Shown in pieces: positions 2,373-58,600 of a stretch of 64,000 bases of DNA (within the stretch, counting starts at the first letter, position 1; each line of letters opens with the position of its first letter). Below the pieces are notes generated by a model that searched no databases, had not been told where the DNA came from, and worked only from the letters and a program-made list of their open reading frames with translations. The stretch lies in IMG/VR virus record IMGVR_UViG_3300012007_000010, positions 1-64,000 of that record, one strand, 5' to 3'. A program made the translations under genes and the position numbers. The DNA comes from a virus (taxonomy: Duplodnaviria; Heunggongvirae; Uroviricota; Caudoviricetes).

Positions 2373-2732
2373 TCAGCCGTGCAGCTTCATGCCGTAGCGG
2401 TCGCGCATCAGTTTGTGCGCCCATTCGGGGATGCTGCTCTCGTCGTGCAGATGCTCGTGCATATAGTCCTCCAGCTCGCGGACGTAATGCTGCAGCAGAC
2501 TGGCGAACTCGGCCTCCGGCACGCAGCCGCCGTCGATGCCGAAGCGGCGCTGGATATACTTCACGTCGTTGGTAAACTTGCGATTGAGCACCATTTCTTC
2601 CTCGCCGCCGCCATGCACATAGACGATGGCGAAGATACGTGCCGCCGTGTCGCGGCTGATGTAGGGCAGGCCCACGCTCTCGAAAGCGGCGATGGTCTGC
2701 TCCTGCAGGGTATTGGCTTGTTCTCTGTTCAT
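2373..2732 (-). CDS. hypothetical protein (~119 aa); internal-Met start of the 391-aa ORF
   Basis: The N-terminal 270 aa of the 2373..3548 ORF is an Arg/Ala-rich GC artefact. The protein-like part begins at MNREQANTLQ. Its ATG overlaps the stop of the upstream gene (ATGA coupling). Confidence 0.45.
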   Translation of the reverse strand: MNREQANTLQEQTIAAFESVGLPYISRDTAARIFAIVYVHGGGEEEMVLNRKFTNDVKYIQRRFGIDGGCVPEAEFASLLQHYVRELEDYMHEHLHDESSIPEWAHKLMRDRYGMKLHG

Positions 2733-3619
2733 ATTGTCTTTCTGAATGTCTCGATGTCGTGTTTGAAATATCGCTGTAGAAACTGTATGCTCCGGCTGAC
2801 GCTGCAGCTGACCGTCGATAACGTGCAGCCCATGTCGCGGGCTATCTCTGAGGGTGTCTGTCCCTCCATGTAGCGGTGCAGGTAGGCTTGCCGCCGCTCG
2901 CCGGGCTGTATGTCGAACAGGCTGCGCTCGCATCGCGTCCTGTTGCTGTGCGGAAGCCAGTCCATTTCGTAGTGGGTCTCGCGCCACCGGCTGTGCTGCA
3001 GGTCGATGGCCCGCAGCCGACTCACCTTCATCCACAGCCCGATGAAGTCGTCGTCGGTGCGGATGGTCGGGTTGTGGCCGCTGGTGGTGATGTAAATGAA
3101 GGCTATCGACACCACGTCCTTGCAGTCGTCGAACGAGAGGCCGGTGGCGTAGTTCGTCGAGTAGCACACCTTCGAGAACTTCTGGCGGTAGATGTCCTTG
3201 CGGCTCTCCATCCGCTCCGTCCATTCGGGGTGCTGCTCCTGCTGCCGTGGGCGCAGGTTCTGCGGTCGCACGTCGTAGGGGTTGCCGTTCATGAACTCCA
3301 GCTCCACGTCGGGCTGCCATCGGTGCAGCGTGTAGGTGCAGTAGGTCAGCACTTGCAGCGGGAACCATGATTCGCGGTGGGGTGCGCTGCTCATGCGTGC
3401 CGCCTTGCCTCCCTTGTTGACCTGCACCTTTCGCGTCCTCGTGAGCCGTCGGCCCTGAATGGTCTGCATGCCGTAGAGGTCGCCCGTCTCGCTGACGTAG
3501 TAGGCGATGTTGCCTATCGTCTGGAAAGGCACGCGCTCCACCCTGCATCCGCTCCTGCGTCGCATCTCGTCGAGGGCCTGCGCCTCGGTGTCGCTGAAGA
3601 ATCCGTTACCTATGACCAT
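2729..3619 (-). CDS. putative HNH-like endonuclease / DNA-binding protein with C-terminal HTH (296 aa)
   Basis: LEFMNGNPYDVRPQNLR resembles the HNH_3/AP2-type motif (H.DGN..NNR.NLR). C-terminal GQTPSEIARDMGCTLSTVSCSVSR is a sigma-70-region-4-like HTH. The assignment is tentative. Confidence 0.4.
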   Translation of the reverse strand: MVIGNGFFSDTEAQALDEMRRRSGCRVERVPFQTIGNIAYYVSETGDLYGMQTIQGRRLTRTRKVQVNKGGKAARMSSAPHRESWFPLQVLTYCTYTLHRWQPDVELEFMNGNPYDVRPQNLRPRQQEQHPEWTERMESRKDIYRQKFSKVCYSTNYATGLSFDDCKDVVSIAFIYITTSGHNPTIRTDDDFIGLWMKVSRLRAIDLQHSRWRETHYEMDWLPHSNRTRCERSLFDIQPGERRQAYLHRYMEGQTPSEIARDMGCTLSTVSCSVSRSIQFLQRYFKHDIETFRKTI

Positions 3620-4788: not shown

Positions 4789-5265
4789 TTAGTCCTCCAG
4801 ATACCATTTCAGAATTTCCTCGTCGCTGTCGCGGAAGAGTCCTTTGTTGTCGAAGATGTTGCCGATTACTTCCACCTTGGTCAGGTCAAGGTCGTAGAAG
4901 CACTTGTTGATGAAGTTGCTGATGCCACTTCTCTCCGATGATTTGAGCACGAACAGCATGACTTGAAACATGCCGACGGCATCGCCTGTGTCGCAGAACA
5001 CGACGCCCATGTAGTTGTCGTTGCCGTCGTCGCAGAACGGGTAATCGTCGGAGCGCAGTATGTCGCCCTCGTAGATGTCGCGTCCGTTCTTGTCCTTCAG
5101 GCCAGTGAACTGGCCAACAGACTGCGAGACGACCTCGTTATTTCGATACAAACCTTTGCATTCAGTCGGGAATACGTAGCATCCGCCAATGTTATCATGA
5201 ACAAGGTCGCCATATTCCCATTCCCCGTTATCAATCCTTTGTCCTCTGAATTTGATTGTTCTCAT
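4789..5265 (-). CDS. YopX-family phage protein (158 aa)
   Basis: KFRGQ...GEW.YG, KDKNGRDIYEGDI and the C-terminal VIGNIFDN motifs are characteristic of the YopX domain. Confidence 0.7.
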   Translation of the reverse strand: MRTIKFRGQRIDNGEWEYGDLVHDNIGGCYVFPTECKGLYRNNEVVSQSVGQFTGLKDKNGRDIYEGDILRSDDYPFCDDGNDNYMGVVFCDTGDAVGMFQVMLFVLKSSERSGISNFINKCFYDLDLTKVEVIGNIFDNKGLFRDSDEEILKWYLED

Positions 5266-5335
5266 ATCGCTCTTTTTTTTGTATCGCCTGTCGGCGAGAA
5301 ATTGGTTAAAAGTGAATAGTGAATAATGAAGAATT
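5266..5335 (-). promoter_or_regulatory. early-gene upstream element copy
   Basis: Minus-strand ...ttttaaccaatttctcgccgacaggcgatacaaaaaaaagagcgatATG, upstream of the YopX gene. Confidence 0.35.
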
Positions 5336-5337
5336 GG

Positions 5338-5748
5338 CTACCGCTCAGCATTAAGCAGTTCCGGGTTGTCATGGATATTGCCAACGACTTCTATGTAGTC
5401 CAGCTGATTACTGAGCAGTTCGCTGTCCTCTTCTATCAGCGTGAGCCACCCGCCATCGGAGTCCTTGCCTATCCATGCGCCGTTGTAGTATTCCACGCAG
5501 TAGGGCTGGCTGCTCCAGCCTTTGGCAGGGTCTCGCCAGTAGATGTCGCCCTCGTAGATGTCGCGTCCGTTCTTGTCGCGCAGTCCGGTGAACTCGCCTA
5601 CGGTGTCGGGGTCGATGACCAGACATCCCCTTTCGAGGCTCATAATGTGGGTATTGCCCTTGGTGTCCTTGTCGTAGAGGTTGCCGAAGAACCATTCTCC
5701 GTCTCTCGATGACTTGCCTCTGAATCTGATAGTTCTCATATCGCTCAT
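5338..5748 (-). CDS. YopX-family phage protein (136 aa), paralog
   Basis: IRFRGK..DGEWFFGNL, LRDKNGRDIYEGDI, VVGNIHDNPELL. Clearly paralogous to 4789..5265 and 62563..62940. Confidence 0.7.
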   Translation of the reverse strand: MSDMRTIRFRGKSSRDGEWFFGNLYDKDTKGNTHIMSLERGCLVIDPDTVGEFTGLRDKNGRDIYEGDIYWRDPAKGWSSQPYCVEYYNGAWIGKDSDGGWLTLIEEDSELLSNQLDYIEVVGNIHDNPELLNAER

Positions 5749-5802
5749 TTTTTTGTATCGCCTTACGGCGAGAAATTATCCAAAAATTATATTAAAAATT
5801 AT
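5749..5802 (-). promoter_or_regulatory. early-gene upstream element copy
   Basis: Minus-strand ...aataatttttaatataatttttggataatttctcgccgtaaggcgatacaaaaaaatgagcgatATG. Confidence 0.35.
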
Positions 5803-6222
5803 TCAGCCTCTTGCTCCTTGCTCAGGCTTGGCCCAATCGAGGCCGTGGTCGTGGAGCAGGTCGTCGAGCTCGAAGAGTGATTTCTTGCCGCCGTCGCGGA
5901 ATCTCAGCCAGTCAGTCCTGTGGAGCTTGCAAAGGTCGCCCAGCGTGTCGATGTCGTTGGCGACACAGATTTTGATGGTGCGCACACTAAGCTCGCAGTC
6001 CGCAATCCGTTTGGCCTTGATGTTGGCTTTCGGGTCAGGCTCAGTCGCAATTACGCCGTGGTTGACATCGTCGGCTGCCAGTTTTTCCAGATAGTCGGCC
6101 ACGTCGCGGCAAAGGTCGGTTACACGGACTGCCCCCGTGTCGGCAGGTTTGTTCTCGTTCTCCTTGGCGCACTGGCGTAGTGCTGCTATCGCCTTGTGCT
6201 GTGTTTCTTTTGTGATTTCCAT
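5803..6222 (-). CDS. RNA polymerase alpha-subunit C-terminal-domain-like (HhH) protein (139 aa)
   Basis: C-terminal CELSVRTIKICVANDIDTLGDLCKLHRTDWLRFRDGGKKSLFELDDLLHDHGL aligns with bacterial RpoA alphaCTD ([53 protein letters not shown]). ELSVR, LGDL and GKKSL.E are conserved. Confidence 0.65.
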   Translation of the reverse strand: MEITKETQHKAIAALRQCAKENENKPADTGAVRVTDLCRDVADYLEKLAADDVNHGVIATEPDPKANIKAKRIADCELSVRTIKICVANDIDTLGDLCKLHRTDWLRFRDGGKKSLFELDDLLHDHGLDWAKPEQGARG

Positions 6223-6376
6223 ATCGCTCTTTTGTTTTTGTCATCGTCTCTTTCGAGCCGAGAAATTAGTTAAAAAATTCTTTTAGTCGGCTGCCGCCTT
6301 TGTAAAAGCGGCAAAGCCGAGCGGGGTTAAAAATTCTTTCAGTCGCTTCGCTTGGTGAAAGCGCTAAAGCGAGTCT
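6223..6376 (-). promoter_or_regulatory. two tandem early-gene upstream element copies
   Basis: Two GTTAAAAA(A)TTC cores (6276-6290 and 6326-6345), each followed by a GC hairpin. Confidence 0.35.
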
Positions 6377-30997: not shown

Positions 30998-32332
30998 ATG
31001 GCTATCAAGAAAGTAAACAACCTCTCTGAGTATGCTGCCAAGCCAAAGAGCAGCACCGAGACGACGCTTACGGGCGTGACCGACGGCAACGAGCTGCGCG
31101 TTGACGGCATCAACGTGCGAGTCGGCACTCCCGCCCTGGGTGATGCAGTCTATGAAGACGCCAATGGCTACTACTTTTACAAGGGTGGTGACCGCCTGAA
31201 CCACACTCTCCTCACTGCCGCCGGACTGACTGCCGTCGGGCCGGTGTGCGGATTCTACGGCGGCAAGGCCGTGGTAATGAACGGTACCGAGGCCGACCGC
31301 AAGTATGCCGACGTGCTGCAATACACCATCACCGCCATCACCAGCACCACGCCAACCATCAATCTCCGCTTCCGAGACACGTCGAAGAGCGGACAGGCGC
31401 AGTATGACAGCAACATCCCCGTCACACCTACGCTCACCTCTACCGACATCAACGCCACCACCGCCGCCGAAATCAGCGCCGCCGTGGCTGCCAAGGCCGT
31501 CGAGGTGGGCGACACGCAGGCATGGTGGGCCTATCTGGCCGATGCCGACGGCAATAAGGTGGACGAAGACGGTACGTGCATCATCATCCAGTGCGACGTG
31601 TGGAGCAACTACAATCAGTACAACGTCAGCGGCTCCGGCCTTACCGTCAAATTCACCACGTGGGGCGACATGCCCGCCAACAGCTGGTATAAGAAACTGA
31701 ACGGCAAGACCACGAGCTATCGCGGTCTGTTGAATATCGCCAGTGGCGCAACCTACTTCGGCACCGAAGGACGTGTGCCGACGTCCGACATCGCAGTGGG
31801 CAGCGAGGCCGGTGATACCAGCCCCGTGAAGCGCGAGGAGTTCAACACCTCGGCATTCTGCACCGCCATCCGCAATCATTACAAAACCTACGAAGCCTAC
31901 CTGCATGGCGAGTTTGACATCCCCTACCCGCAGAAGTGGGGCTGCTTCGGCCTGCCGCACGCAAAGGAACTGACGCTGAAGTATGCGTTGAAGACCGCTC
32001 CCACCAAGAACGGCGGCGAGAAGTACAAGTTCCCAGCCATGTACTATGCCTACAACACCTCCTACGGCATCGACGGCCTGGACTTCGGCGACTGGTATCT
32101 GCAGGGTGTTCACGAGGGCGTTCAGTTCATGGACGACGCCAACATAGCCGTCATCAACCGCACGCTGTCCAAGATGGGTAAGTCTACCATTAGTACCGGC
32201 ACGCACCGTTGGTTTGCTCAGAGGGACAACGCGGACGGCGCTTGGATCTTCAGCGGCTACAGCGGCACCTTGGGCTACAACCACGTGAACCGCACGTTTC
32301 GTGCGAGGGCCCTTGCGCTATTGAATTTTTAA
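30998..32332 (+). CDS. DGR target protein: receptor-binding tail fibre with C-terminal variable repeat (444 aa)
   Basis: C-terminus ...TGTHRWFAQRDNADGAWIFSGYSGTLGYNHVNRTFRARALA is the VR counterpart of the TR 750 bp downstream. Confidence 0.8.
   Translation: MAIKKVNNLSEYAAKPKSSTETTLTGVTDGNELRVDGINVRVGTPALGDAVYEDANGYYFYKGGDRLNHTLLTAAGLTAVGPVCGFYGGKAVVMNGTEADRKYADVLQYTITAITSTTPTINLRFRDTSKSGQAQYDSNIPVTPTLTSTDINATTAAEISAAVAAKAVEVGDTQAWWAYLADADGNKVDEDGTCIIIQCDVWSNYNQYNVSGSGLTVKFTTWGDMPANSWYKKLNGKTTSYRGLLNIASGATYFGTEGRVPTSDIAVGSEAGDTSPVKREEFNTSAFCTAIRNHYKTYEAYLHGEFDIPYPQKWGCFGLPHAKELTLKYALKTAPTKNGGEKYKFPAMYYAYNTSYGIDGLDFGDWYLQGVHEGVQFMDDANIAVINRTLSKMGKSTISTGTHRWFAQRDNADGAWIFSGYSGTLGYNHVNRTFRARALALLNF
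32195..32317 (+). repeat. DGR variable repeat (VR), 123 bp
   Basis: Aligns base-for-base with 33079..33201. All but one of ~22 mismatches fall where the TR has A. Confidence 0.8.
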
Positions 32333-33078: not shown

Positions 33079-33201
33079 ACCGGCACGAACCGTTGGTTTG
33101 CTCAGAGGTACAACGCGAACAACGCTTGGATCTTCAACGGCAACAACGGCAACTTGAACAACAACAACGTGAACAACACGAATCGTGCGAGGGCCCTTGC
33201 G
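33079..33201 (+). repeat. DGR template repeat (TR), 123 bp, AAC-rich
   Basis: Reads ...TGTNRWFAQRYNANNAWIFNGNNGNLNNNNVNNTNRARALA with ~15 Asn codons. The ORF-track '33016..33231 71 aa' is this TR, not a gene. Confidence 0.8.
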
Positions 33202-33259
33202 AAATTGTCTAAACGTATCATATTGGAATGACTTATAGTTTTCTTATCTGTTTAAAAAA

Positions 33260-34573
33260 ATGACCCTTCGAGAAAAAGCAACCATATTCAGGCATCAGTG
33301 CGACGTGATGGACGCTACCCGTAAGAATAAGCGCTACGGACGCGACTCCGTGGCCTTCGAGCGGCGTTGGGCCTCGCAGCTCTATAGCGACACGCAGGCA
33401 CGGCTGGGGCTTACGTTCCGGATAGAAGAGAATTACGTGTTCCTTACTTCGATTCCGCGCTGGCGGGAGATTTTTGCCACCTGCGCCTCCGGGCGCAACG
33501 CCGACCACGAACTGTGTGATGCACTGGAGCCGTATATTGAGCGCGAGTTGCACGAGCGCACGTTCAACAACCGCAAGAAGATGGGCAGCCAGGCAGCCAT
33601 CGACCGGGTTATGGAGGATGTCTTCGAGGTGACGCAGGGCTATACCCGTCCTGCCCGCATCATCAAGCTCGACCTCAAAGGATTCTTCCCTAATGCCAAT
33701 CTCGACGTTATGGAGCAGTTCTTCCTTCGCATCATCGACAAGTATCAGGACGACATCATTGCCAATGCTGGTATGTCGGGCGAATGTCCGCCGGCCTACG
33801 CCGCCGAATATCCTGCCTATCTGCGCTGGCTTGCGATGATTGTCATCCACTGCTGTCCCGCACGCCACTGTGAACTGCGCACGCCACGCACCCTCTGGCA
33901 TGAAAACATCGCCCCGGAGAAATCGCTCTTCGGCAAGCCCGACGGCATCGGTGCGCCAATAGGCCGTCTGCCGTCACAGAAAGGCATGGGTCTGTATGTG
34001 AACGACGAGGTGCGCTGGCTCAACGATGACTGCGGTGTGCGCACCACCTGCTTCATGGACGACTTCGTAATAGTAGTCACGGAAAGTCAGCATCGCTATG
34101 CGCTGTCACTTATACCAGCACTTCGTCGCCGGCTCGCCGCCAAAGGCGTTCGTCTGAACGAGAAGAAGTTCTACGACCAGCCATCCAAACGCGGGCTTGA
34201 GTTTCTCGGGTCACATATCCGCAACAACCGGCTGCACCTGAACGACTGCACCTATTGGCGCGGCATGGAGCGGTTGTGGTGGTTTAACGGCCTGTCGCCG
34301 GACTGGAAGTATCTGTTTCTTGAAAACTTCCTGTCGTCGGTCAACAGTTACTTCGGGCTACTGAAAACCCGCACAGACCACAAACGCCTGTTAGCACTGC
34401 TGCAGGTCGTCAATCTGGACTGGTGGTACTACTGCCACTACAATCCCCAACGCCAGTGCATCGCAGCCAACGAGAGTTACAGCCATCGCAACCTTATCAA
34501 CAGCAAATATCATTTATTAACCAACAAAAAGATTAAGCATTATGACACAACAGGAAAAGCAATCGCTGCTTAA
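33260..34573 (+). CDS. DGR reverse transcriptase (437 aa)
   Basis: RT motifs: IKLDLKGFFPNANLDVM (motifs 1/2), IGAPIGRLPSQ (DGR-RT signature GLPIGNLTSQ), FMDDFVIVV (YxDD box). Confidence 0.85.
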   Translation: MTLREKATIFRHQCDVMDATRKNKRYGRDSVAFERRWASQLYSDTQARLGLTFRIEENYVFLTSIPRWREIFATCASGRNADHELCDALEPYIERELHERTFNNRKKMGSQAAIDRVMEDVFEVTQGYTRPARIIKLDLKGFFPNANLDVMEQFFLRIIDKYQDDIIANAGMSGECPPAYAAEYPAYLRWLAMIVIHCCPARHCELRTPRTLWHENIAPEKSLFGKPDGIGAPIGRLPSQKGMGLYVNDEVRWLNDDCGVRTTCFMDDFVIVVTESQHRYALSLIPALRRRLAAKGVRLNEKKFYDQPSKRGLEFLGSHIRNNRLHLNDCTYWRGMERLWWFNGLSPDWKYLFLENFLSSVNSYFGLLKTRTDHKRLLALLQVVNLDWWYYCHYNPQRQCIAANESYSHRNLINSKYHLLTNKKIKHYDTTGKAIAA

Positions 34574-46691: not shown

Positions 46692-49600
46692 TTACAGGTA
46701 TTTCTCGCCGTGCCTTTGCGCTTCCTTCTGCATCTTGTTATACATGTTGGGTATGCCCTCGGGGCCCGTCCAGATGTTCCGTGCGTAGATGGGCTGGTTC
46801 AGCCGCTCCAGCAAGGCTTCCTGTATGGCACTGTTGCGGTCGAGCGCAGTGAGCATCTGCTCCATCCCCATGCCGCCAGTTCCCTCAGCCGTCAGCCCTC
46901 CGCCATCAGCCATATCCTCGAACTCCCCGATGTTGCCGTCGGCAAAGGCTCTCACGCCAGTGCCGCGACGGCGGCGGGTGCTCAGCCCGGAAATAGAGCC
47001 GCCGTTATACAGCGTTTGTATATCGCGCCAGATGCCGGTGTCGTCCATGCGCATCAGGCGGGTGGTGCGAGCGTCGATGATGGCCTCCGGCCCCGCCTCG
47101 CCCACGAGGTGAAACTCCGGCCCGTTCGTAATGTGGGTCTTTGCTCCCTTGCCCATGTAGCGGGCGCGGTAGGTCTTACCGTCCGCCCCGTCCACATTGT
47201 ACTGTCTGCCAGGTGTCAGCGAAGCCGGATCGGTCAGCTCGTTCACGTTACCCGTTTTGTAAGTCAGCATGCCCGTCGCCAGACGGCCAGCTGATACCGA
47301 TGCACCCGTGGCCTGAGAAATTTCAGATTTATGCTTACCAATCTTACTGGCTGCTATTCCCATTAGTCCGCCGAGCACTCCTGTGAGTGCAGCAAATATT
47401 GCAGCACCGGCAATCGGGTGAATCTTCAAGCACTCTGCAAGAATAGCCGGTAGTGAGCCTGCCACTTTTGACTGATCTTTCGACCAGTTGGTAGTTAGCA
47501 TGGCTATAGCCGTCTGTCCAGCGGTCTGCAGGGCAATCATCTGGAATTTCTGCTCCGTCGATAGGTTGTCGTTGCTCATGGCCTGATAGGCGATGCCATA
47601 CAGATTAGCAGCCTGCGTCATCTTAGCAAACATATTGCCAGTACTCTGCGTCATCTGTTTGCTTGTCTGGTTCTCGCCTTGCTTGATCTTCTGTTGATTC
47701 TCAAGAATGGCCTCTGTTGCATGGTTGCTGGCAGATATATTAGCATTGGCCACGCTGTTATACATATTGGCAGCGTTCTGAGTAGCCGTTTCCACATGTT
47801 CCTCCGTCAACTGCGTCGGGTCGGGAATCTTGTTCGGCATCTCAGCCATTGCGTCGCTCATCTGCTGCATGGCGGCAATGCCCTGATCGGCATAGCTCTG
47901 CCACAGCGTGCCCATGCGCTCCATCACCGCCTCCAGTTCGTCCTCGCGTATCTGCCACGGCGGTAGCACCACGCCCGGTATCTCAGCCAGTGAGGCAGCC
48001 ATCTGTGTCATGGCTTCCACGCCTCCCTCGTTGTAAGCCTGCCACAACTCGCCGATGGCGGTCATAGCCTGAGCCTTCTCCTCCTCGGTCATCTGGAAGA
48101 AAGGCTTCTGCAGGAACACGCCGTCGGCAGTCTCGCCGCCTGCGGGAGCCAGTGCCGGTGCTGCGGGAACGTCTGCTGGCGTAGAAGCGGCTGGAGCCTG
48201 ACCGCCCAGTGCCTGAGTCAGTGCATTCACGGCCTGCGTGTTGGCATCCGTGGCAGCGGTGTTGGCGGGGTCGGTCGCCGTCCACATCGGCTTCTGCTCT
48301 GTGTCTCCTATAGGCCAGTATGACGTCGGCTGCTCCGTCTGGGCAGGTTCCGTCGGCTGGATGGGGGCGATTATCTGCCCGCTGCCGTCGAGGGCAAAGC
48401 CGTTCTCGTCGCGCTTCAACTGGCTTGCGTCGGTGAAGCCGGTTGATGCGCCCTGTCCCACCTGTGCCCACAGCGCCTGTGTGTTGGCTATCACAGCCTG
48501 CGTGTTCGCATCAATACTCTGGTTCTGCAACATGGCGTTGATCTGGTCGGTGATGGTTTCGCTCATCTTCTTGTTCAAGTCATCCATCAGTTTGCGCCAC
48601 GCTTCCGCCTGTGCGTTCTGCACTTCGATTTCGTGCTGCCGCTCCAGTGCCTGCCGCTCGTCGAGGTATTCATAATGAGCCTTGGCATCGCTGGTTCCCG
48701 CATCGTCGATGACGACGTAGGTACCTGCTCCTGGCCCGCCTTTGCCGGTCAGGTTCAACTTCGCCAGCTCATTGTAGTATTCGGCATCCCCCGCATGGCT
48801 GGCCTCGAAGACGCCCTGCAGCGAGCTCGTCAGCAGGTCGGCCCACTCGCGCAGCGACGTATAGAGGCGGTTCTGGCTCTCCTCCTGAATCTTCAGCAGC
48901 TCGGCTTTCTGCTGCTCCTGCTTCTTCGTTTCCTCGGCCAGCGTCAGCCCCAGCGAGAGGCGCACGTTCTCAGCGTCGCGCTCGGCGTTCGTCGCCATCA
49001 GCAACTCGCGCTTGCTCTCTGCCAGATGGTTCTCTTTCTCCATCTGTTTCGCCAGCCTACGATGCTCTTCCGCTTCCGCCTTCAGCGCCGCCATGCGCTG
49101 GTTGGCCTGCACGCGGTACATGTCGTACTGTGCCTTCTGCATCCGCATCTGCACCTCTATCTGCTTCATGGCCAGTCGCGAGGCCACGTTGTCGCTCGCC
49201 GCCCCGGCACCTATCAGACTGTTGGCGCGGCTCACCGAGTCCTGCTGCATGCCAAGCTGTGCCAGTGCCTTATCGAAGGTGGCCTTCATCGACATGCCGC
49301 CGATGCCACGGGCGTCGTCGTTCCAGATGATTTCCACGTCCTTCTTGATCTGGCTCGCCTCCTTCTTCACCGCGTCCTGCACCTCCTGATATGTCTTGCG
49401 CAGCTGTCCCATCACGGCCTGCTTCAGCATGTCGCTCTTGCTGATTTCCTCGGCGGTGGCGGTCATGCCCTCCTTCACCATGCGGCGCAGCAGTTCGTCG
49501 ATGTCTATCGAGTAGGCGTCGGCGGCCTGCCGCAGATAGAAGGCCATCTCGTCGTAGCTCTGGGCGGTTATCTGCTCGTTGGAGTATTTCGGCTCCTTGC

Positions 49601-52600
49601 CCTGCCGTGCCAGTTCCTCGTTCTCGCGTCGGTACTTGGCGGCCAGCACACCCATCTTGTCGAGGTTGTCCTGCAGGTTCTTCGTGATGCCGTCGTATGG
49701 TCGCTCCTTGGCCAGCGTGTCCTCGATGAACTTCATCTGCTTTCCGATGGCCTGGGCAGCCTTCAGGAAGCTACGCTCCGCACTGAGGTCCATGTCCGAC
49801 TCCCACTTGTGGATCATAGCCGCCCCCTTCTCGCCCGTCTTGGCGATGTCCTTGGCAAACTTGTTGGTCCTGGCCACCGTGCCTCTGACGAACTCCACCG
49901 TGTCGCCTGTGCGCTCGCTGATGATACGGTAGATGGCATCCATCTCTTCCTTCGTCACCTCGCCGCTCTTGTCGGCATATATCTTCTGCAGTTCGGCGCG
50001 TCGCGTCTGCCACTCGTTTTCGTTCTGAATGGTGCGCCGCCACGCCTCGCCCTCGGTTATCTCCTCGTCGTTGCGGGCCTGCTCTATGCGCGTTTTGCGC
50101 TCCGTGTAGTAGGCATCCAGCTCGTGCAGGTAGGCATCTATCTCGTCGTGCCACTGTTTCTTGGCCGCCCGCTGTTGTTTTGGATCCTTCCAGTCGCCGG
50201 TGTTCGTCAGGTGGCGGGCGTGAAGCTCGTCCTGAATCTTCAGGCGCTCAGTGTTGTACCACTCGATGACCGTGCGCATGTCGCTCGACATACCCGCCTC
50301 GATGGCTTTCTTCAGAGCCTTGTCCTCTGCCAATACAGCCTTCACGTCGGTATCAGTCTGGATGGCGTTGACGAAGTCCTTCATCTGCTTGCGACGGTTC
50401 ACCAGCTGTTCAGCCGTCATGTTCTTCCAGTCGGTACTCTCGGCTGGAAGACGGTTGCCCCAGATGTTGTTCGTCTCAGTATCGAGCGTGCTGAAAGCAT
50501 CGAAGCCCTGCTGTATCTTGTCGCGTGCCCTCTGCAGGCGGCTGCTGTCGATGAACTTCTTGTTCTTCTCCAGCACGTCGGTCACAAACTGCTTGGTCTG
50601 CTGCTGCTCTGCCGTTTCCAGTTCGTCCACGTTCTCGTTCACTCCCTCCAGCGCACGGGCCAGTTCGGCATAGGCATCGTTGCGCTCCTTGGCCGACAGG
50701 TCGCTCTGCCGTAGCAGTGAAATCTGTGCGTTGATATTATCTTTCAACTGGCCGACGATAGTAGTGGTCGATTCTTTCAGGTCTTCCTCCGTAGCTCCGA
50801 GGTCTTCCTGATAGAGCCTGCCCGTCTTGGCATTCTCACGCTGCATGTCGAAGTACTCCTCCAGGTAGTCGCCACGAAGGTTGTTGCCCCAAAGTTCTTT
50901 CGAGGTAGTCCAGATGTATCGCCCCTTGCTCATGCCGTAGTCGCTCTTGTAGTAGTCGATACCGGTAATGTCCTTGATGGCATTGCGGTTCAGCCCGTAG
51001 TTCTGTTGCAGGTAGCGAGCCATCCATACGGCAGTCAGCTGTTCGAGCGAGGCATTGTCGTTATAGAGCGAGCCGAGATCTTTCTTCAGCTGGTCGCTGG
51101 CCACGAGGTCACCATTGGCATTGGTGGTGTAACTCTTCGACAACATCTTCCTGAAGGCCAGTCGTGCGCTGGCGGCCTGATCGCCCGTCATGCGGTCGTC
51201 CTCGGTCATCTGGCTCACGATTTTTGCCCAGTCGTCGCTCAGGTCGTCCTGGTGTTTCTTTTCGTTCTCTTCGATAGATGCCTGCTTCTGCTTCATCAGT
51301 ATCTCGCGGCGGATGGCAGCGGCAATCTTGTTGTGGGCAGCGGCCACCATCTCAGCGCGGTCGTACTCCGTGAGCATGAAGCCCAGGTACTTGCTGTAGT
51401 TCTGATTGATGTTGGCTATGGCGGTACGGTGGTTGTCGGTGGCTTTCGTCATGCGGATTTCCGCCTCGGTGGCTTTGTCCGTTCCGGCGGTCATCCCTTC
51501 GGTGGCTTTCCTGGCAGCATCCAGTTCCGCCGTGGTGTCCTTCAGATGGTCGAAGTACACACCCAGCTTCTCCGTAGCCCTGTCGGCCTCCTGATTGGCT
51601 TCGGCCAGTGCCTTCTTCTCTGCGTCCACACTGGTTACAATGTCGTATATCGCCTTGCCCAACGTATAGAGCAGGGCGATGACGGCCACGATGATGTTGG
51701 CCTTCATCGTCGTGTCGAGACCTTTCCATGCCGTTTTCAGTCCGTTGATGCTGAAGATACTCACCTTCGATGCGGCACCCATGCCGGAGATGGCTCCCGT
51801 GGCCGACTCCACGGCCTCGCCAGCCTGTTCGCCCGCCTCCTTGGCGTCGCTCAGTGCGTCGCCCATATCGCCCACCACGTCGGCAGCTTCTCCCACGCCC
51901 TCTGCCGCATCCGATATAGCATCGGTGGCGTTGGCTGCTTTTTCCAAATCTGCGGCAGCTTTCTGGGCGCTCTCTTTCAGGTAGTCGAACACGCTGCCCG
52001 CTGCCGCCGGTATGCTGGTCAGTCCGCTCTTGATGGCAACTACGGAAATGACGGTAGAGTTGAATGCCGTGTTGAGCGGTCCGCTTATCAGGTCAACGAT
52101 GACGCGCAGGGCGTCAATCACGCCGCCCAGCGCATTATTTGCCGACGTGCCTACCCACATCTCCTCGAACTGGTTCTTCAGTCGCTCCCACTTGGCGGCG
52201 GTCGTCTCGCTCATACGGTCGTACTCCTGCTGTATGGCAACATTCTCCTCATAGGCTTCGGCGGCTATACCCAGATGCTGGCGCAGCACATCGACGTTCT
52301 GCGACAGTCCGGCGAACACGATACCGGCGCGTGCTCCCTGCTGGTTCAAGTCCTTCATGATGTCCTGCATACCGCCCATGCCCAGCATCTTCTCAATGTC
52401 GTCGGGGTTCATGCCCGCATCCTTGATGTGCTGGAAGATGGCAAGCATGGCGTTCATGCCGCCGCCTGCCTCGTCGAACATCTTGCGCAGGGCCTCGGGA
52501 GCCATGCCGATAGCCTTGGCCACCTCGAAGGCGTTATTCCTGATGGCGGGAATCATTCGCGACAGGGCCGTGGCCGACATCTCGACTCTCATACCAAGGG

Positions 52601-55600
52601 CATCAACCGTAGAACCGAGGGCTGCCACCTGGTCGATGGTGATGCCGCTCTGAGCACCCACGGCTCCCACACGTTTTACGAAGTCCGTAATCTGTGGAGC
52701 GGCGGCGGCTGAGTTGGCACGCAGTTGGTCGATGGTCGAAGCGATTTTCTCCATAGCCACAGCCGTTGCGCTGCTGCCCTCTATCAGTCCCTTGTCCATA
52801 TCCTTCTTAATCCTGTTCACCTCGCCCGTAGCCAGAGCCACCTTCATCATCTGCGTGGCACCGTCGGCTCCCATTTCAGGCAGGGCGACAAGCATCTTAT
52901 TGGCAGCCTCGGTGAAGCCCAGTATGTCCTCCTCAGTCTTCAAACCCAGCTGTCCGGCCTTGGCACTCAACTCGGTCAGAGCTACCAATGTAGTCCTCGT
53001 ATCAAGGTCTCGCAGTCTGTCCGTCAGCCTGCCTACCTGTTCGGCGGTCATCTGCGTGGTCTTGCCCACCTCGCCCATGCGGTCGGAGAGTTGCATCAAG
53101 TCGCCCAGCGTGCCAGATACTTTCTGCCACAGTTCATTGAAGCCCATATACATCACGACATAGGTCTTCAGGCGGCTGAAGGCTTTCTCCCATGCGGTGG
53201 CGCTGGCCTTGGCCTGACCCTCCATCTCCTTCATCACGTTCTTGGCGTTGCGCACCTGCTCGGCGAAACGCTTATATTCGTCGCTGTTCTGACCGAGCGA
53301 GTCCTGCATCTGGCGCAGTTGTCCGTCGGCGCGTTTGATGGCGGCCCGCAGCTCGTCGAGGTTCACGGCGTTGGCGGGTGTCTCTATCAGCGTCCGCATC
53401 TTCTCCTGCGACATGTTGACGTTGTCTTGCTCGAACTTCAGCGAGCGCAGCTTCTTCGTCAGGTCGTCGAGTTCCTTCTCCTGAGCGTCCACGGCGTTGT
53501 CCAGGTCGCGCTCGGCCCTTATCTGGCGTATCAGTTCCTCGCGGCGGCGCTCCAATGCCTGCGTGGCCTGCTGTATCTCTTGCGCACTGGCGGCAAATCC
53601 TTTCTTGCCAGCGCCATCGGCAATCTTCTGCGCGTCGGCCAGCTTCATCCACTCGCCCGTGGCCTCCTTCAGCTCCTTGTTCATCTCGCCGATGGTCTTG
53701 CGCAGCTCCTCCCACCGTTTCTGCCCGTCGGCGGTAGAGCGGTCCTGAGCCATCGCCTCGGCCTCCAGCACCTTGATACCCTCCTGCATCTCCTCGCGGG
53801 TCATGCGGCGGGCCTTCTGCACCTGCTCCTCTACCTCCACCAGTCCGAGGGCTTCGGCCTTCTGCTGCTTGTAGTAGTCGAGCCGTTCTTTGGCACTGTC
53901 AAGATACCATTTGTTCATGGTCACCAGTTCCCTTGCACCCACACGGTGGTCTTCATCCCCCTCAATCTCGTCATTGAGTTTGCGCATCTTCTTTCTGTCG
54001 CTATCGCCAAACATGGCGCGGCCAAGAGAAGAACGGTTCCTTACTTTCTCTGACAACTTATCGCGCTGGGCTTCAAGCGAGGCAAGCCTTTCCTCGGCTT
54101 TCTTTACTTCCTTCTCCCAGCGGTCTATGTCTTCGGTTGCCTCTTTGATGTTGTCATCAAACACCGACACATGCTGGCTCAGCTGCTCGTCAATCGACTG
54201 CCCCGACGTGGTGACCACCGTGCCTTTCATGTGCTCGCTGAACCGTGCTATCACCGCGTCTGCATTCTCAAAGGCAGCCTTCGCCTTGTCGGTCTTGCCC
54301 TTCAGTGCGTCGAGCTGGGCGGTGAGTTTCTCTATCTCTGCGGTCACGTCGTCAAACGTGCCTTTGCCGCTGGTAGATGGATTCTCAATGAGAGCTCTAT
54401 ACGCTTTCAGGCGCTTGATGGCTTCGTCGAGCTGGTCCATGCTGGCACCGTCAAACCCGCCAGTCTGCGACTTTGCCAGCGTCGCCTGTTGTTCCTGCAG
54501 CTCGTCGGCATCCTTCTTCGCCTTGCGGGCGATCTCTATACTATATTTGTTAAGGTGTTCCTCGGCGGCGACAATCTTCTTTGTTAGCTCCGTAGCTTCG
54601 GTGCTACCCGACTTATACGATGCAGCCAACTGCTTGGCGGCCTCGATAGCCTCGCGAATTTCGGCGGTGCTGTAGTCTCTCAGGTTGCCGTTCAAGCGGG
54701 CGGCACGCTCTTCGCGGGTGACGGATGCCTGCTGCTCCTGCAGAGCGATGGTGCGCTCCAGTTCGTAGCGGTAGCCTGCCAGACTCTCCTTGGCGGTCTT
54801 GGGATCGTCAATGAGCCGCTGCCAGTACTGCTGCTGTGTCTTCAGCGCCGACTCCGAGAGAGACGTGCCTTGGTCGAGCTGCTGGCGCATCAGCTGGTCC
54901 TGTTCCTTGCGGCGCTGTGCGGCTTCCTCCAAAGCCTGCGCCTCGCGGCGTGCGCTTCGCTCTGCCTCTATGCCGTACTGCTTCAGGTGCTCCTCTGCAT
55001 CGAGGATGGCCTGCGACAGGCGCCTGGCAGCAGGACCGCCGGAGTCGTAGGTATCGATTAGCCGACGGCCTGCCTCGATAGCGGCACGTATATCCTCGCC
55101 GTTCTTCTTGCTCAGGTCGCCGAACAGTGTGCGCACCTGCTGCTTGTCGGCAGTGCGGCGGCGCTCGCTCTCTATATCGTTGATGCGTTTCAAGGCTGCC
55201 TCGGCATCGCGTGCTTCGTCGCTTCCGCGCTTGGCACCGTCGGCCATAGCCTGCCAGTAGCGCTTCACCTCGGTCAGTCCAGCGGTGGAGAGGTTGTTCA
55301 GGTCGCGCATCTGCTCGTTAATGTACTGTGCCTGGATGTTTGCCTTGCGGCGGTTCTCCTCGTTGGTGAGTGCCTTGACGGCCAACTCGGCTTTCTTGTA
55401 GGCTGCAGATGTCTGGCTGACACCGTCGCGCACGGTCTCCCAGTAGCGCTTTGTCTCGGCAAGGTCGGCGGTAGATAGCTTTTCCAGGTTGTTCAGGCGC
55501 TTGCGCATCGGGGCCTGTATCTCCTGGCGGCGTTTCTCCTCCTCCTTGGCAACCTTCTCCAGGTTGCGCTCATATTCCTTCAGTTCCGTGCTGCCGTGCT

Positions 55601-58600
55601 CGGCGCCGGTTATCATTCCCTGCCAGAACTTCTTCGTCTCTTGCAGGGCGTCGGCAGAGAGATTGCGGATGTTACCCATGCGCTGGGTCATCATGTCGAG
55701 CACGGGCTGCTGCTTCAGGCGGTCGAGCTCTGCCTGATACTGGCGTATGAGTCGGGCATTCTTGACCCACTCCTCGCTCTCGGGCTCGATGGCGCGGTTC
55801 CTGGCTTCGAGCACCTTGACAGCCTCGGTCATGGTGTCGATGGTGAGCCGCTGTGCCTGAACTTGCTTCTTCTGGGACTCCAGTCGCTTCTCGGCGTTAT
55901 CGTCAATCTTCTGGTCATATTCTGCCAACGCCTTGCGACCCTCGTTCACCTTGTCGTTCAGTTTGCCTTGCTCGAACTCAGACTTCTTCAGCTTCTCACT
56001 CTCCTTATCCAGAGCGTCGGCATTCTTACCGTGGGCCTGTGAGAGTTCTTCGGTCATCTGACGGGCTTCGCTGCGGTTGTTATTGGCGCGTACATCGGCA
56101 GCGGCGGCAGCCTCTTCCTTCTTGGTTATCTCGTCAATCTTCTGTCCGCGCTTAGCCTCCAGCTCCTGTTTCTTCTGCTCCAGGGCGATGCGCTTCTGGT
56201 CTTGCTCGCTCAACTGCTCCTGCTGCTTGGCGGCATCACCCTCGGCGTTGGCTTCCTCCTTCACGGCCTTGGTGGTGTCCTCCAAGGTCTTCTTTTTGCG
56301 GCCACGGCTCTTGGCGCCTTTCTCTACAGCCTCCGTCTCCTGGTTCTGGGCGGCGGTCGATTTCTGGGTCTCCTCAGTGGATATGCCCATCATCTTCGTC
56401 AGGTCACTTACCGACTTCTCCCAGAGCTTCTTCAGACGGTTCTTGTCGGCTCTTGCCTTCTTGACCACGTTCTCGTTGTAGTCGTCAATCTCGTCCTTCA
56501 GTTGAGCCTTGGCGAGGGCGGCGTCAGTACCGCTACTGGGCAGGCTGGCATAGCGCTGCCGCATATCTTTCAGCTTTTTGTCAGCCTGCTCATATTCCTC
56601 GTTCATCTTGTCGAGGGCTGCCTTGCGGCGCATCACCTCTGCCTCCTGTGCCTTTATGGCGTCGGTCTGGTCCTTCGTGGCCTCGGTGGCATCCTTGGCG
56701 GCATCGGCTCCGCGACGGGTGGCATCGCTCACCTCGTCGGTGGCCTGCTTCACACCCTTGCTCACATCGACGAGCGCCTTTGCTTTCTCAATACGGGCAT
56801 CGTAAATATCCTTGACATACTGGATATGGACAGAGCCCACATCGGCACTAAGGTCTACGTCGCCGCCCATGAACATACCGTCCTTGCCTTGCAGGATTTT
56901 TTTGAGCAGCGCCTTGGCATTGGTCTTGTCATCCTTCCAACCGTATCGCTGCTGGAAAGCAGACACCAGGGCATCCACCTGACTGCCAGCCAGCGAGAGG
57001 GAACCGTTGTCGTTCTTGATCTTGCCAATCGTTCTCATCTTGCCAATCAGGAACTGCTGCACCTCCTCTGGGTCCGACATGTGCAACTTGCCAGCCTTGT
57101 AGCCCACGGTCGAAACCTTCTTGGCTTCTTCGAGGGCGGCTTTGGCTTCCTCCTGACTCATCTGCCTGACAGCCTCTGTCTCAGCTTTGATAGTCGCGAT
57201 GCGCTCCTTCTGCGCGTCGGTGAGCCTAACGGTCTTCTGCGTCAGCCCTTCAGTGGCAGCCGCTTGGCCGTTCCTCATCTTCATGGTCTGTATGGAGATG
57301 TCGTGCGACTCCTTCTGCGCCGCTTCGAGTTCTGCTTCCACGTCGGCGAGGGTGCGTTTCTTCTCTGTATCCTCCTCCACGGCCTTCACCTCACCGTTGA
57401 TAACGGCGGTCAGGTCTTTTATCTCCTTGCTATAGGCGGCAACCTTCGGCACGTTCTCCTCGACGTTCATGAAGAACTTATTCATGAAGCCGCTCTTTAC
57501 CAGTCCACCGCCCGACATAAGTTCCCTGACGGCAGCCATTGCCTCACCCTCTCCCTCTATGCCGTAACGCTCCTGGAACTTGCCCAGCAGCTGACTGATT
57601 TTCTCCGGACTGCTCTCGATAGACATGATGGTCTTGCCCATGTTGGCGGGGTTGATTTCTCCCAGCGCGTCGAAGAGATACCGCTGTGCCTCTTCGCGGT
57701 TGCCTATTTGCCACTTCTCACCCTCTTTCTTAAAGGTGGCCAGCTGCTGCTTCTGGTCGAGCATGGCCTGCGCCTGCTCCTTACTCAGGTCTTTGTAGGC
57801 GTTGGCTTCCTCCTTGACGGCAGCGGCGTTCTTCTCCTGCGTGGCGAGCATCTGCTTGCGTTCCTCGTTGAGCGCAGCTATCTTTATCTTCAGTTCGTCG
57901 TTGCGCTTTATCAGCGACTCCACTGTTACCTTTTCGTTCTCTGCAGCTTTAGCGGCAGTCTCGCCGGCCTTCACCTCCTTCTCCTTGGCAGCGGTGTTTT
58001 CCTCCGTGGCTTTGGTCTCTTCCTTCTTGGCGGCTGCTGAATCCTTAGAGGTCTGCTGTTCCTTCTTGGCGGCTTCGGCACTCTTGTCGGTAGACTGTGC
58101 CTCCTTCTCTTTGGCGGCACTAACTTTATCCGCAGACGCACCGGCAGCGGCAGGACCTGCCGACGTGCTCATCTTGGCGAGTTCTTCATTCACCTGCTTC
58201 AGTTCGTCGTCAATCCCCTTGACCTCGGTCTTCATCGTCTCGGCAGCCTCGCGGAAGCTCTTGGCGTTGTTCTCGTAGGCGGTCGCCTCCTGGTTCAGCT
58301 TGTCTATATTCTTCTGCTTGCGTTCGGCATCCTTCTTCTCGTTGTCGATGCGGTCCTGGATAGCGGCCACCACCTTGCGCTGTTTCTCCACCTCCTTGTC
58401 CTTGGCGATGGCGTTGGCAGCGTCTATCGACACCTGCTTGGCCTTCTCGTCGCGCTCGGCCTTCAGTGCGGCGATGTTCTCGGTGCGCTGTTTCACCTCC
58501 GCCTCGGCCTCCTTGCGCTGACGGGCGGCTTCCTCCACCCCCTTGCGGGTGAGCTGGCTGCTGCGCTCGCGGGCATCGTTGGCATCCACGATGGCACCCG

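Follow-up and report, generated by a model that had tools for sequence, protein, structure and literature searches.

[quoted passage not shown] The preliminary description of the gene, made from the sequence letters, had recognized an aCTD signature at the C-terminus of the 139-aa product, had noted the lack of the N-terminal assembly domain of the alpha subunit and had proposed that a free aCTD could compete for UP elements or activators and redirect host transcription. A profile search with PF03118 and a superposition on solved aCTDs had been named there as checks, with a generic helix-hairpin-helix (HhH) nuclease domain as the alternative outcome; the peptide on which it was based corresponds to residues 76–128 of the ORF. 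In Pfam, RNA_pol_A_CTD (PF03118) was the sole match of the protein (E = 8.9e-8, 32.2 bits, above the gathering cut-off of 23.8 bits) and covered residues 65–124 and profile positions 7–66 of 67. The Pfam families for the alpha N-terminal domains (PF01193, PF01000) did not match, nor did the generic HhH families HHH_5 and HHH_2 at E ≤ 10, and the XRE HTH (PF01381) that occurs in sister proteins such as P0013 was absent. Consistent with a missing assembly domain, the NCBIfam rpoA equivalogs (TIGR02027, NF0035xx) reached 18–34 bits against cut-offs of 228–523 and aligned via their last ~70 model positions only. PHROGs contained no family for the protein at E ≤ 1. When all PDB chains were searched with phmmer, exclusively RNAP alpha subunits were matched, aligning with residues ~50–132. 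The top two chains, 9n9p_A (E = 2.4e-10) and 8dkc_A (E = 7.9e-9), belong to the enzymes of Flagellimonas taeanensis and Porphyromonas gingivalis, which are both Bacteroidota, and the E. coli aCTD scored ~1e-4 in the same search.

The structural model led to the same identification. An AlphaFold2 model built from 48 family sequences had pLDDT values of about 90 for residues 70–130 and placed the helices of the aCTD module at residues 80–88, 94–98, 102–107 and 113–125. This module superposed at 0.8 Å over 66 residues on the aCTD of B. subtilis (1z3e_B), at 1.1 Å over 65 residues on that of E. coli (1lb2_E) and at 1.1 Å over 66 residues on 8y5t_A2, with TM values of 0.91–0.94, and the top 50 PDB fold matches found by Foldseek were all RpoA. 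The 139-aa phage protein is a true aCTD homolog without an RNAP assembly domain, and both structural claims of the preliminary description were thereby borne out by the checks it had named. That the ORF is a host rpoA fragment or encodes a complete alpha subunit was also considered, and was rejected in view of the phage context, the gene's own start codon and promoter-like cassette and the identity of only 51% to the nearest rpoA; a repair-type HhH protein was rejected since no profile of such families matched. Residues 1–50 were modelled as two helices with lower confidence in the full-length protein, followed by disorder at residues 51–61; modelled alone, the N module formed a confident two-helix hairpin (pLDDT 90), for which neither sequence nor fold comparison yielded informative relatives. 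The succession of a small N module, a linker and an aCTD formally parallels the alpha subunit, and the N module is unrelated to the alpha NTD (Table 1).

Table 1. Features of the aCTD gene, its product and the adjoining non-coding DNA (positions in the window).
Feature	Position	Strand	Basis or remark
Complete CDS, 139 aa plus TGA stop (5803-5805)	5803..6222	minus	ATG-to-TGA ORF
N module, residues 1-47	6082..6222	minus	Helix-loop-helix hairpin MEITK..AIAALRQCAKENE..TDTGAVRV.DLC.DVADYLEK, conserved, uncharacterised
Flexible linker, residues 48-61	6040..6081	minus	pLDDT < 50 at residues 51-61; indels in homologs
aCTD module, residues 62-132	5827..6039	minus	PF03118 match, residues 65-124 = 5851-6030
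Short, non-conserved C-terminal tail, residues 133-139	5806..5826	minus	pLDDT < 50 at residues 135-139; absent from most homologs
A/T-tract motif GAATTTTTTAACTAATTTCTCG, promoter- or UP-like, candidate binding site	6259..6281	minus	Pattern count
Small stem-loop with GAAA loop directly after the motif, probably 5' leader	6244..6261	minus	-5.8 kcal/mol
A-rich leader and start context GAGCGATATG	6220..6243	minus	Exact GAGCGATATG at four gene starts of the cluster
Strong, terminator-like GC hairpin separating the aCTD promoter motif from the upstream gene	6287..6320	minus	-21.2 kcal/mol, z = -3.6
Phased AATTTTT motif directly after the aCTD stop, upstream of YopX	5773..5800	minus	Pattern and alignment
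Repeated upstream cassette	2303-2385, 5260-5345, 5734-5815, 6217-6345	minus	Shared motif order

Over the aCTD, the window protein was 51% identical to RpoA of a member of the Paludibacteraceae (L005), which is a genuine 331-aa alpha subunit encoded between rpsD and rplQ, 48% identical to the alpha subunit of P. gingivalis (8DKC) and 42% to that of F. taeanensis (9N9P), with 36% for E. coli and 32% for B. subtilis. A scan of 185,579 species genomes did not reveal a close relative of the phage protein; its best cellular matches were rpoA genes of Bacteroidales, but the scan (alignment A2) was seeded with family-specific peptide patterns and its ranking of organisms is therefore biased, so that the Bacteroidota affinity rests on the unbiased PDB ranking. 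Cellular matches obtained with the A2 alignment were only genuine rpoA genes or distant aCTD proteins, and a scan of species-representative genomes with the single protein returned nothing. As judged from these comparisons, the aCTD module was most likely derived from an rpoA gene of the Bacteroidales type and has diverged since. The A-rich leaders without a Shine-Dalgarno-like sequence fit a Bacteroidota host, and a scan for sigma-70-type promoters was uninformative, as expected for a host of this type.

The gene is carried by a large gut phage. Two contigs from gut metagenomes, 130 and 138 kb long, encode an identical 139-aa protein (P0001). Among the products of the window, which has a G+C content of about 57%, are a reverse transcriptase, a primase-like zinc ribbon, an SPFH protein, a tail protein and a head maturation protease. 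The aCTD gene lies outside of any rpsD-rpoA-rplQ operon, within a run of small genes on the same strand that mostly lack an assigned function, and its neighbors are small phage genes and YopX. Two tandem YopX-family paralogs (4789-5265 and 5338-5748, minus strand) follow directly downstream, and YopX genes are also located near aCTD or N-module genes in two further loci (L051, L057). The fourth gene downstream (2729-3619, minus strand) encodes a 296-aa protein whose sole recognizable part is a C-terminal HTH of the sigma-70 region 4 type (Sigma70_r4_2, 28.8 bits against a cut-off of 25.7, with weak matches to ECF and Bacteroidetes sigma models) and which, by its sequence, is possibly a phage transcription factor. 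Farther away, the window contains a diversity-generating retroelement with the variable repeat at 32195-32323, the template repeat at 33079-33207 and the reverse transcriptase at 33260-34573; the repeats of 129 nt are 85% identical, in the copy nearest the reverse transcriptase, adenines account for 18 of the 19 mismatched positions, and the variable copy forms the 3' end of a 444-aa ORF (30998-32332). A single ORF of 4187 aa (46692-59255, minus strand) had no Pfam match at E ≤ 0.01.

Relatives of the window protein were collected in homolog sets of 101 homologs and of 857 representatives out of 1.84 billion, and they show that both of its modules are shuffled independently. The aCTD module (residues ~62–132, including the lead-in EPDPKADIKAKR) recurs with 65–88% identity behind unrelated N-termini. 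Of the 101 homologs, at least 13 have an XRE HTH in this place, P0028 has a GNAT acetyltransferase and others have several uncharacterised domains; the module also occurs with almost no N-terminus (P0035, 77 aa; P0050, 76 aa; P0104, 59 aa). Conversely, the N module heads more than 30 clusters with mutually unrelated C-terminal parts, is fused to a Tad2-like domain (PF11195, Thoeris anti-defence 2-like) in the metagenomic proteins P0095 and P0097 and exists by itself in P0173 (58 aa) and P0123 (63 aa), which makes it a module without annotation that is widely shuffled among the N-termini of accessory proteins from gut phages. P0002 corresponds to the window protein with a 77-aa insertion at the linker, and P0003 has a deletion at the same point. 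Seven viral contigs in IMG/VR carry the aCTD module. The subfamily of the window protein was seen only in metagenomic contigs, and all those examined were phage-like; in GenBank phages, tblastn returned only two weak partial matches, both from uncultured faecal phages. In other phages, homologs are accompanied by RecT-like and MBL-fold genes, by YopX and lysis genes, by RtcB, by a methylase or by a connector. No neighborhood was conserved across family members, and guilt by association consequently failed; since the neighbors vary from phage to phage, the aCTD is a mobile cassette of gut phages and not a component of a fixed operon. One of the homologous genes (5683-6225 in L050, a 73-kb viral contig) contains a single in-frame TGA (5782-5784) at a codon for Trp in P0040; this reflects either a nonsense mutation or, alternatively, TGA-to-Trp recoding in that phage.

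Which part of the surface is maintained during this shuffling bears on the function of the module. We mapped 37 family members to the numbering of the E. coli alpha subunit (window residue + 184). The residues corresponding to the UP-element DNA contacts constitute the best-kept functional surface of the family: R265 and K298 are present in all 37 sequences, N294 in 34, G296 in 33 and N268 in 30, the S299 position is occupied by 28 Ser and 7 Thr, and the K291 position by 30 Lys and 3 Arg. The window copy retains R81, G112, K114 and S115, the equivalents of R265, G296, K298 and S299, but departs from the family with K84 at the N268 position and D110 at the N294 position. All six residues are kept in the family consensus, and the closest relatives, P0002 and P0003, have Asn at both positions, so that the window copy may differ from them in DNA affinity or specificity. 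The dN/dS ratio of the aCTD module was 0.07–0.47 overall and 0.12–0.24 between the window and related loci. The module is under purifying selection.

The reading that we prefer, with a rough probability of 0.45, is that the 139-aa protein acts at promoters as a free, aCTD-type binder of the minor groove of A/T-tract DNA. As in RNAP, the module would read the narrow minor groove of A/T tracts by means of its helix-hairpin-helix, through the G-K-K-S hairpin and the invariant Arg equivalent to E. coli R265. Not being attached to RNAP, a free aCTD would occupy UP-element-like A/T tracts beside promoters, where it would either lower UP-dependent transcription, by competing with the polymerase's own aCTDs, or label these sites for a partner that the N module binds. 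The proposal of the preliminary description, in which host transcription is redirected by competition for activators or UP elements, would fit the conservation of the DNA contacts and the HTH fusions. Isolated aCTDs bind DNA weakly, and as a monomer the protein would compete poorly, which oligomerisation through the N module could remedy; oligomerisation and partner binding are the candidate roles of this module.

The nearest candidate sites for such a protein would be phased AATTTTT tracts upstream of the aCTD gene itself and of three neighboring genes. Matches to the pattern AATTTTTN{4,6}AATTT were found five times in the window, where none was expected, all of them on the minus strand and upstream of genes in the cluster of the aCTD gene; for the A/T-tract motif, three intergenic sites were found against an expectation of zero, one of them in the DNA upstream of the aCTD gene. 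The tracts are part of a cassette that is common to four genes, namely the aCTD gene, the two YopX genes and one whose start lies at 2308. In this cassette, phased (G/T)AATTTTT tracts spaced 11–12 bp apart and ending in AATTTCTCG are followed by a stem-loop, an A-rich leader and GAGCGATATG. The stem-loop has a stem of 4–5 bp, the sequence of which varies between the copies, and a GNRA-type loop; upstream of the aCTD gene as well as of the three other genes, the hairpin is found at the equivalent position. The presence of the cassette indicates that the YopX gene listed at 5338-5748 really starts at the ATG at 5739 (MRTIRF). From its layout, the repeated cassette is probably a phage promoter with a 5' leader, and possibly also a joint for the exchange of cassettes by recombination. 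The UP-element targets of aCTDs are helically phased tracts with a narrow groove (PMC3694059). Binding of the aCTD protein to the tracts could regulate this cluster of early-type genes and might or might not affect UP-dependent promoters of the host as well. None of the seven related IMG/VR loci with an aCTD module contains the exact motif, so that the link between aCTD and motif in the window is circumstantial and a general link is unsupported.

Several features of the family lie outside of the DNA-contact surface and lead to a different interpretation, which we judge to be unlikely, namely that the free aCTD is a protein-contact decoy that titrates a factor docking on the host aCTD, or that it serves to target fused effectors to a factor of this kind. 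As targets of a decoy, a host activator, an alpha-modifying enzyme encoded by phage or host and a defence sensor were considered. The stretch equivalent to the activator-contact patch at positions 285–289 in E. coli reads H-K-T-D-W in the family, with H101 in 30 and W105 in 33 of the 37 members. From the pair of sigma-contact residues, D259 is present in 36 of 37 sequences, and E261, which the window copy retains as Glu, is mostly replaced by Asn in the family. The C-terminal LHDxGLDW motif is nearly invariant. Invariant residues are H124, W130, C76 and C86, with C98 in 34 of 37; at the three Cys positions the core of the E. coli aCTD has Leu, Leu and Val, and the cysteines may form a metal site or simply be core residues. 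Conservation of C76, C86, C98, H101, W105, H124 and W130 suggests an additional or different interface. The metagenomic protein P0028 (235 aa), in which a GNAT acetyltransferase domain is joined to a phage-type aCTD module, is notable because Rac of phage phiKMV, which acts on the alpha subunit and triggers cleavage of its linker, is also a GNAT protein (PMC7552054). However, a decoy leaves unexplained why the solvent-exposed DNA-contact Arg and the GKKS hairpin are invariant and why the module is recurrently fused to sequence-specific DNA-binding HTH domains, and no partner is identifiable from conserved neighborhoods. In the more distant PF03118 proteins that are not RpoA, the domain is joined to HTH_17/MerR domains, to an SNF2 helicase or to an HTH of the sigma-70 region 4 type, each of them a partner that acts on DNA. 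This favors a DNA-binding accessory module over a pure mimic of protein contacts.

The same distant proteins could be taken to indicate that the window protein is a generic HhH DNA-binding accessory of phage replication, recombination or repair without a relation to transcription, which we regard as quite improbable. In addition to the fusion of distant PF03118 domains with an SNF2 helicase and the match of the PADLOC model of PglW to such repeats, the position of the L050 homolog between a RecT-like gene and a gene with a metallo-beta-lactamase fold and the presence of a primase-like gene in the region of the window gene would be in line with a role in DNA metabolism. Against it stand the sequence and fold matches, all of which are RpoA aCTDs and none a repair-type HhH, the change of neighbors between phages (YopX, lysis genes, RtcB, methylase) and the fusion partners within the close subfamily, which are HTH domains of the transcription type. 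Among the distant metagenomic proteins, P0105, P0110, P0117, P0121 and P0130 are large, are not RpoA and contain 3–11 tandem PF03118 domains, to which an SNF2 helicase or an HTH of the sigma-70 region 4 type is added in some; it is the aCTD repeat region of P0130 that is matched by the PADLOC model of the BREX kinase PglW.

The resemblance of the domain layout to that of the alpha subunit (NTD, linker, CTD) could also mean that host RNAP or a phage transcription factor, for instance the sigma-region-4-like protein encoded at 2729-3619, is bound by the N module and in this way receives a phage-specific replacement aCTD for promoters with T-tracts. Both the T-tract promoters and the gene for a protein with a sigma-70 region 4 HTH, four genes downstream, are present, but the N module also carries unrelated payloads such as the Tad2-like domain and exists alone, and the aCTD module occurs with many other N-termini or with none, which makes a dedicated RNAP-docking function of the N module unlikely and this interpretation as a whole very unlikely. 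That the gene is a functionless by-product of recombination between neighboring cassettes has hardly any probability, because, in spite of the extreme mosaicism, the indels of P0002 and P0003 at the module junction and the repeated promoter and leader sequences that could act as recombination joints, an uninterrupted ORF with an identical product was found in two independent metagenomes, the window copy has a dN/dS ratio of 0.12–0.24 against its relatives, and the gene possesses a promoter-like cassette of its own and a conserved start context.

Returning to the free promoter-DNA binder, the preferred reading can be extended to the whole family in a form that we put forward as doubtful: the aCTD cassette could be a portable promoter-targeting module of phages of gut Bacteroidales, which competes with host RNAP for UP-like A/T tracts when alone or tethered to a small, oligomerising hairpin, and which delivers the XRE and GNAT fusions to promoter-proximal DNA or to aCTD-binding factors. 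If so, these phages would take over transcription by mimicry of a polymerase domain, a mode that is so far undescribed; a phage-encoded copy of the aCTD would act as competitor or decoy, unlike proteins that modify, cleave or mask those of the host. The shuffled cassettes with XRE, GNAT and uncharacterised modules represent a natural set of constructs for the function of free aCTDs, and the family offers a handle on transcription in Bacteroidales, for which the literature searches found few reports about the function of the aCTD or of UP elements. If the protein is only a weak, generic DNA binder, it would be an ordinary accessory gene, and on present evidence it is not distinguishable from a DNA-binding protein of this ordinary, accessory kind.

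Compared with the aCTD of RpoA from Bacteroidales and other Bacteroidota, the window protein has the same fold (0.8–1.1 Å), an identity of 42–51%, a flexible linker ahead of the domain and the ELSVR...GDL...GKKSL..E signature with the equivalents of R265, G296, K298 and S299. It differs from RpoA in being encoded by a phage outside of the rpsD-rpoA-rplQ operon and in lacking the alpha N-terminal domain for dimerisation and assembly; the window copy carries the N268K and N294D exchanges, and the family has its own core cysteines, H/W-rich surface and LHDxGLDW end. To the subfamily of the window protein also belong the XRE-HTH fusions (P0009, P0013, P0024 and others), which JGI names 'transcriptional regulator with XRE-family HTH domain'. 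Their aCTD module, including the EPDPKADIKAKR lead-in, is 65–81% identical to that of the window protein, and they have a sequence-specific HTH domain in the place that is taken by the helical-hairpin N module in the window protein.

Effects on the contact between aCTD and DNA are known from other phages. Gp67 of Staphylococcus aureus phage G1 and the ADP-ribosylation of alpha R265 by T4 disable the contact of the aCTD with UP elements (PMC3694059), and the GNAT protein Rac of phiKMV-like phages induces cleavage of the alpha linker (PMC7552054). If the preferred reading is right, the window protein would have the same target, namely the contact of the aCTD with upstream A/T-rich DNA, by which strong host promoters are driven. 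In contrast to the window protein, these factors bind sigma, modify alpha covalently or trigger its cleavage, and none of them is an aCTD homolog, so that the resemblance concerns the possible effect only and does not imply membership in a common family.

Proteins with an aCTD as the only recognizable domain have been named automatically in UniProt and BFVD for uncultured Caudovirales, Rhodococcus phage Finch and Mycobacterium phage Mithril, and ORF40 of Erythrobacter phage vB_EliS-L02 was annotated as an aCTD protein in the genome paper (PMC9127768). No functional study of a free or phage-encoded aCTD was found in the literature, with most subscription journals outside of the coverage. Like the window protein, the catalogued proteins are small (~100–240 aa) and have their aCTD at the C-terminus, whereas the identity in structural alignments is merely 16–27%, their hosts belong to other phyla and their N-terminal parts are different. 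By sequence, the window protein belongs to a separate subfamily that is closest to the alpha subunits of Bacteroidales. Phage proteins with aCTD domains are thus already catalogued, although uncharacterised, and the window protein adds to them a shuffled two-module cassette family and defined candidate DNA sites.
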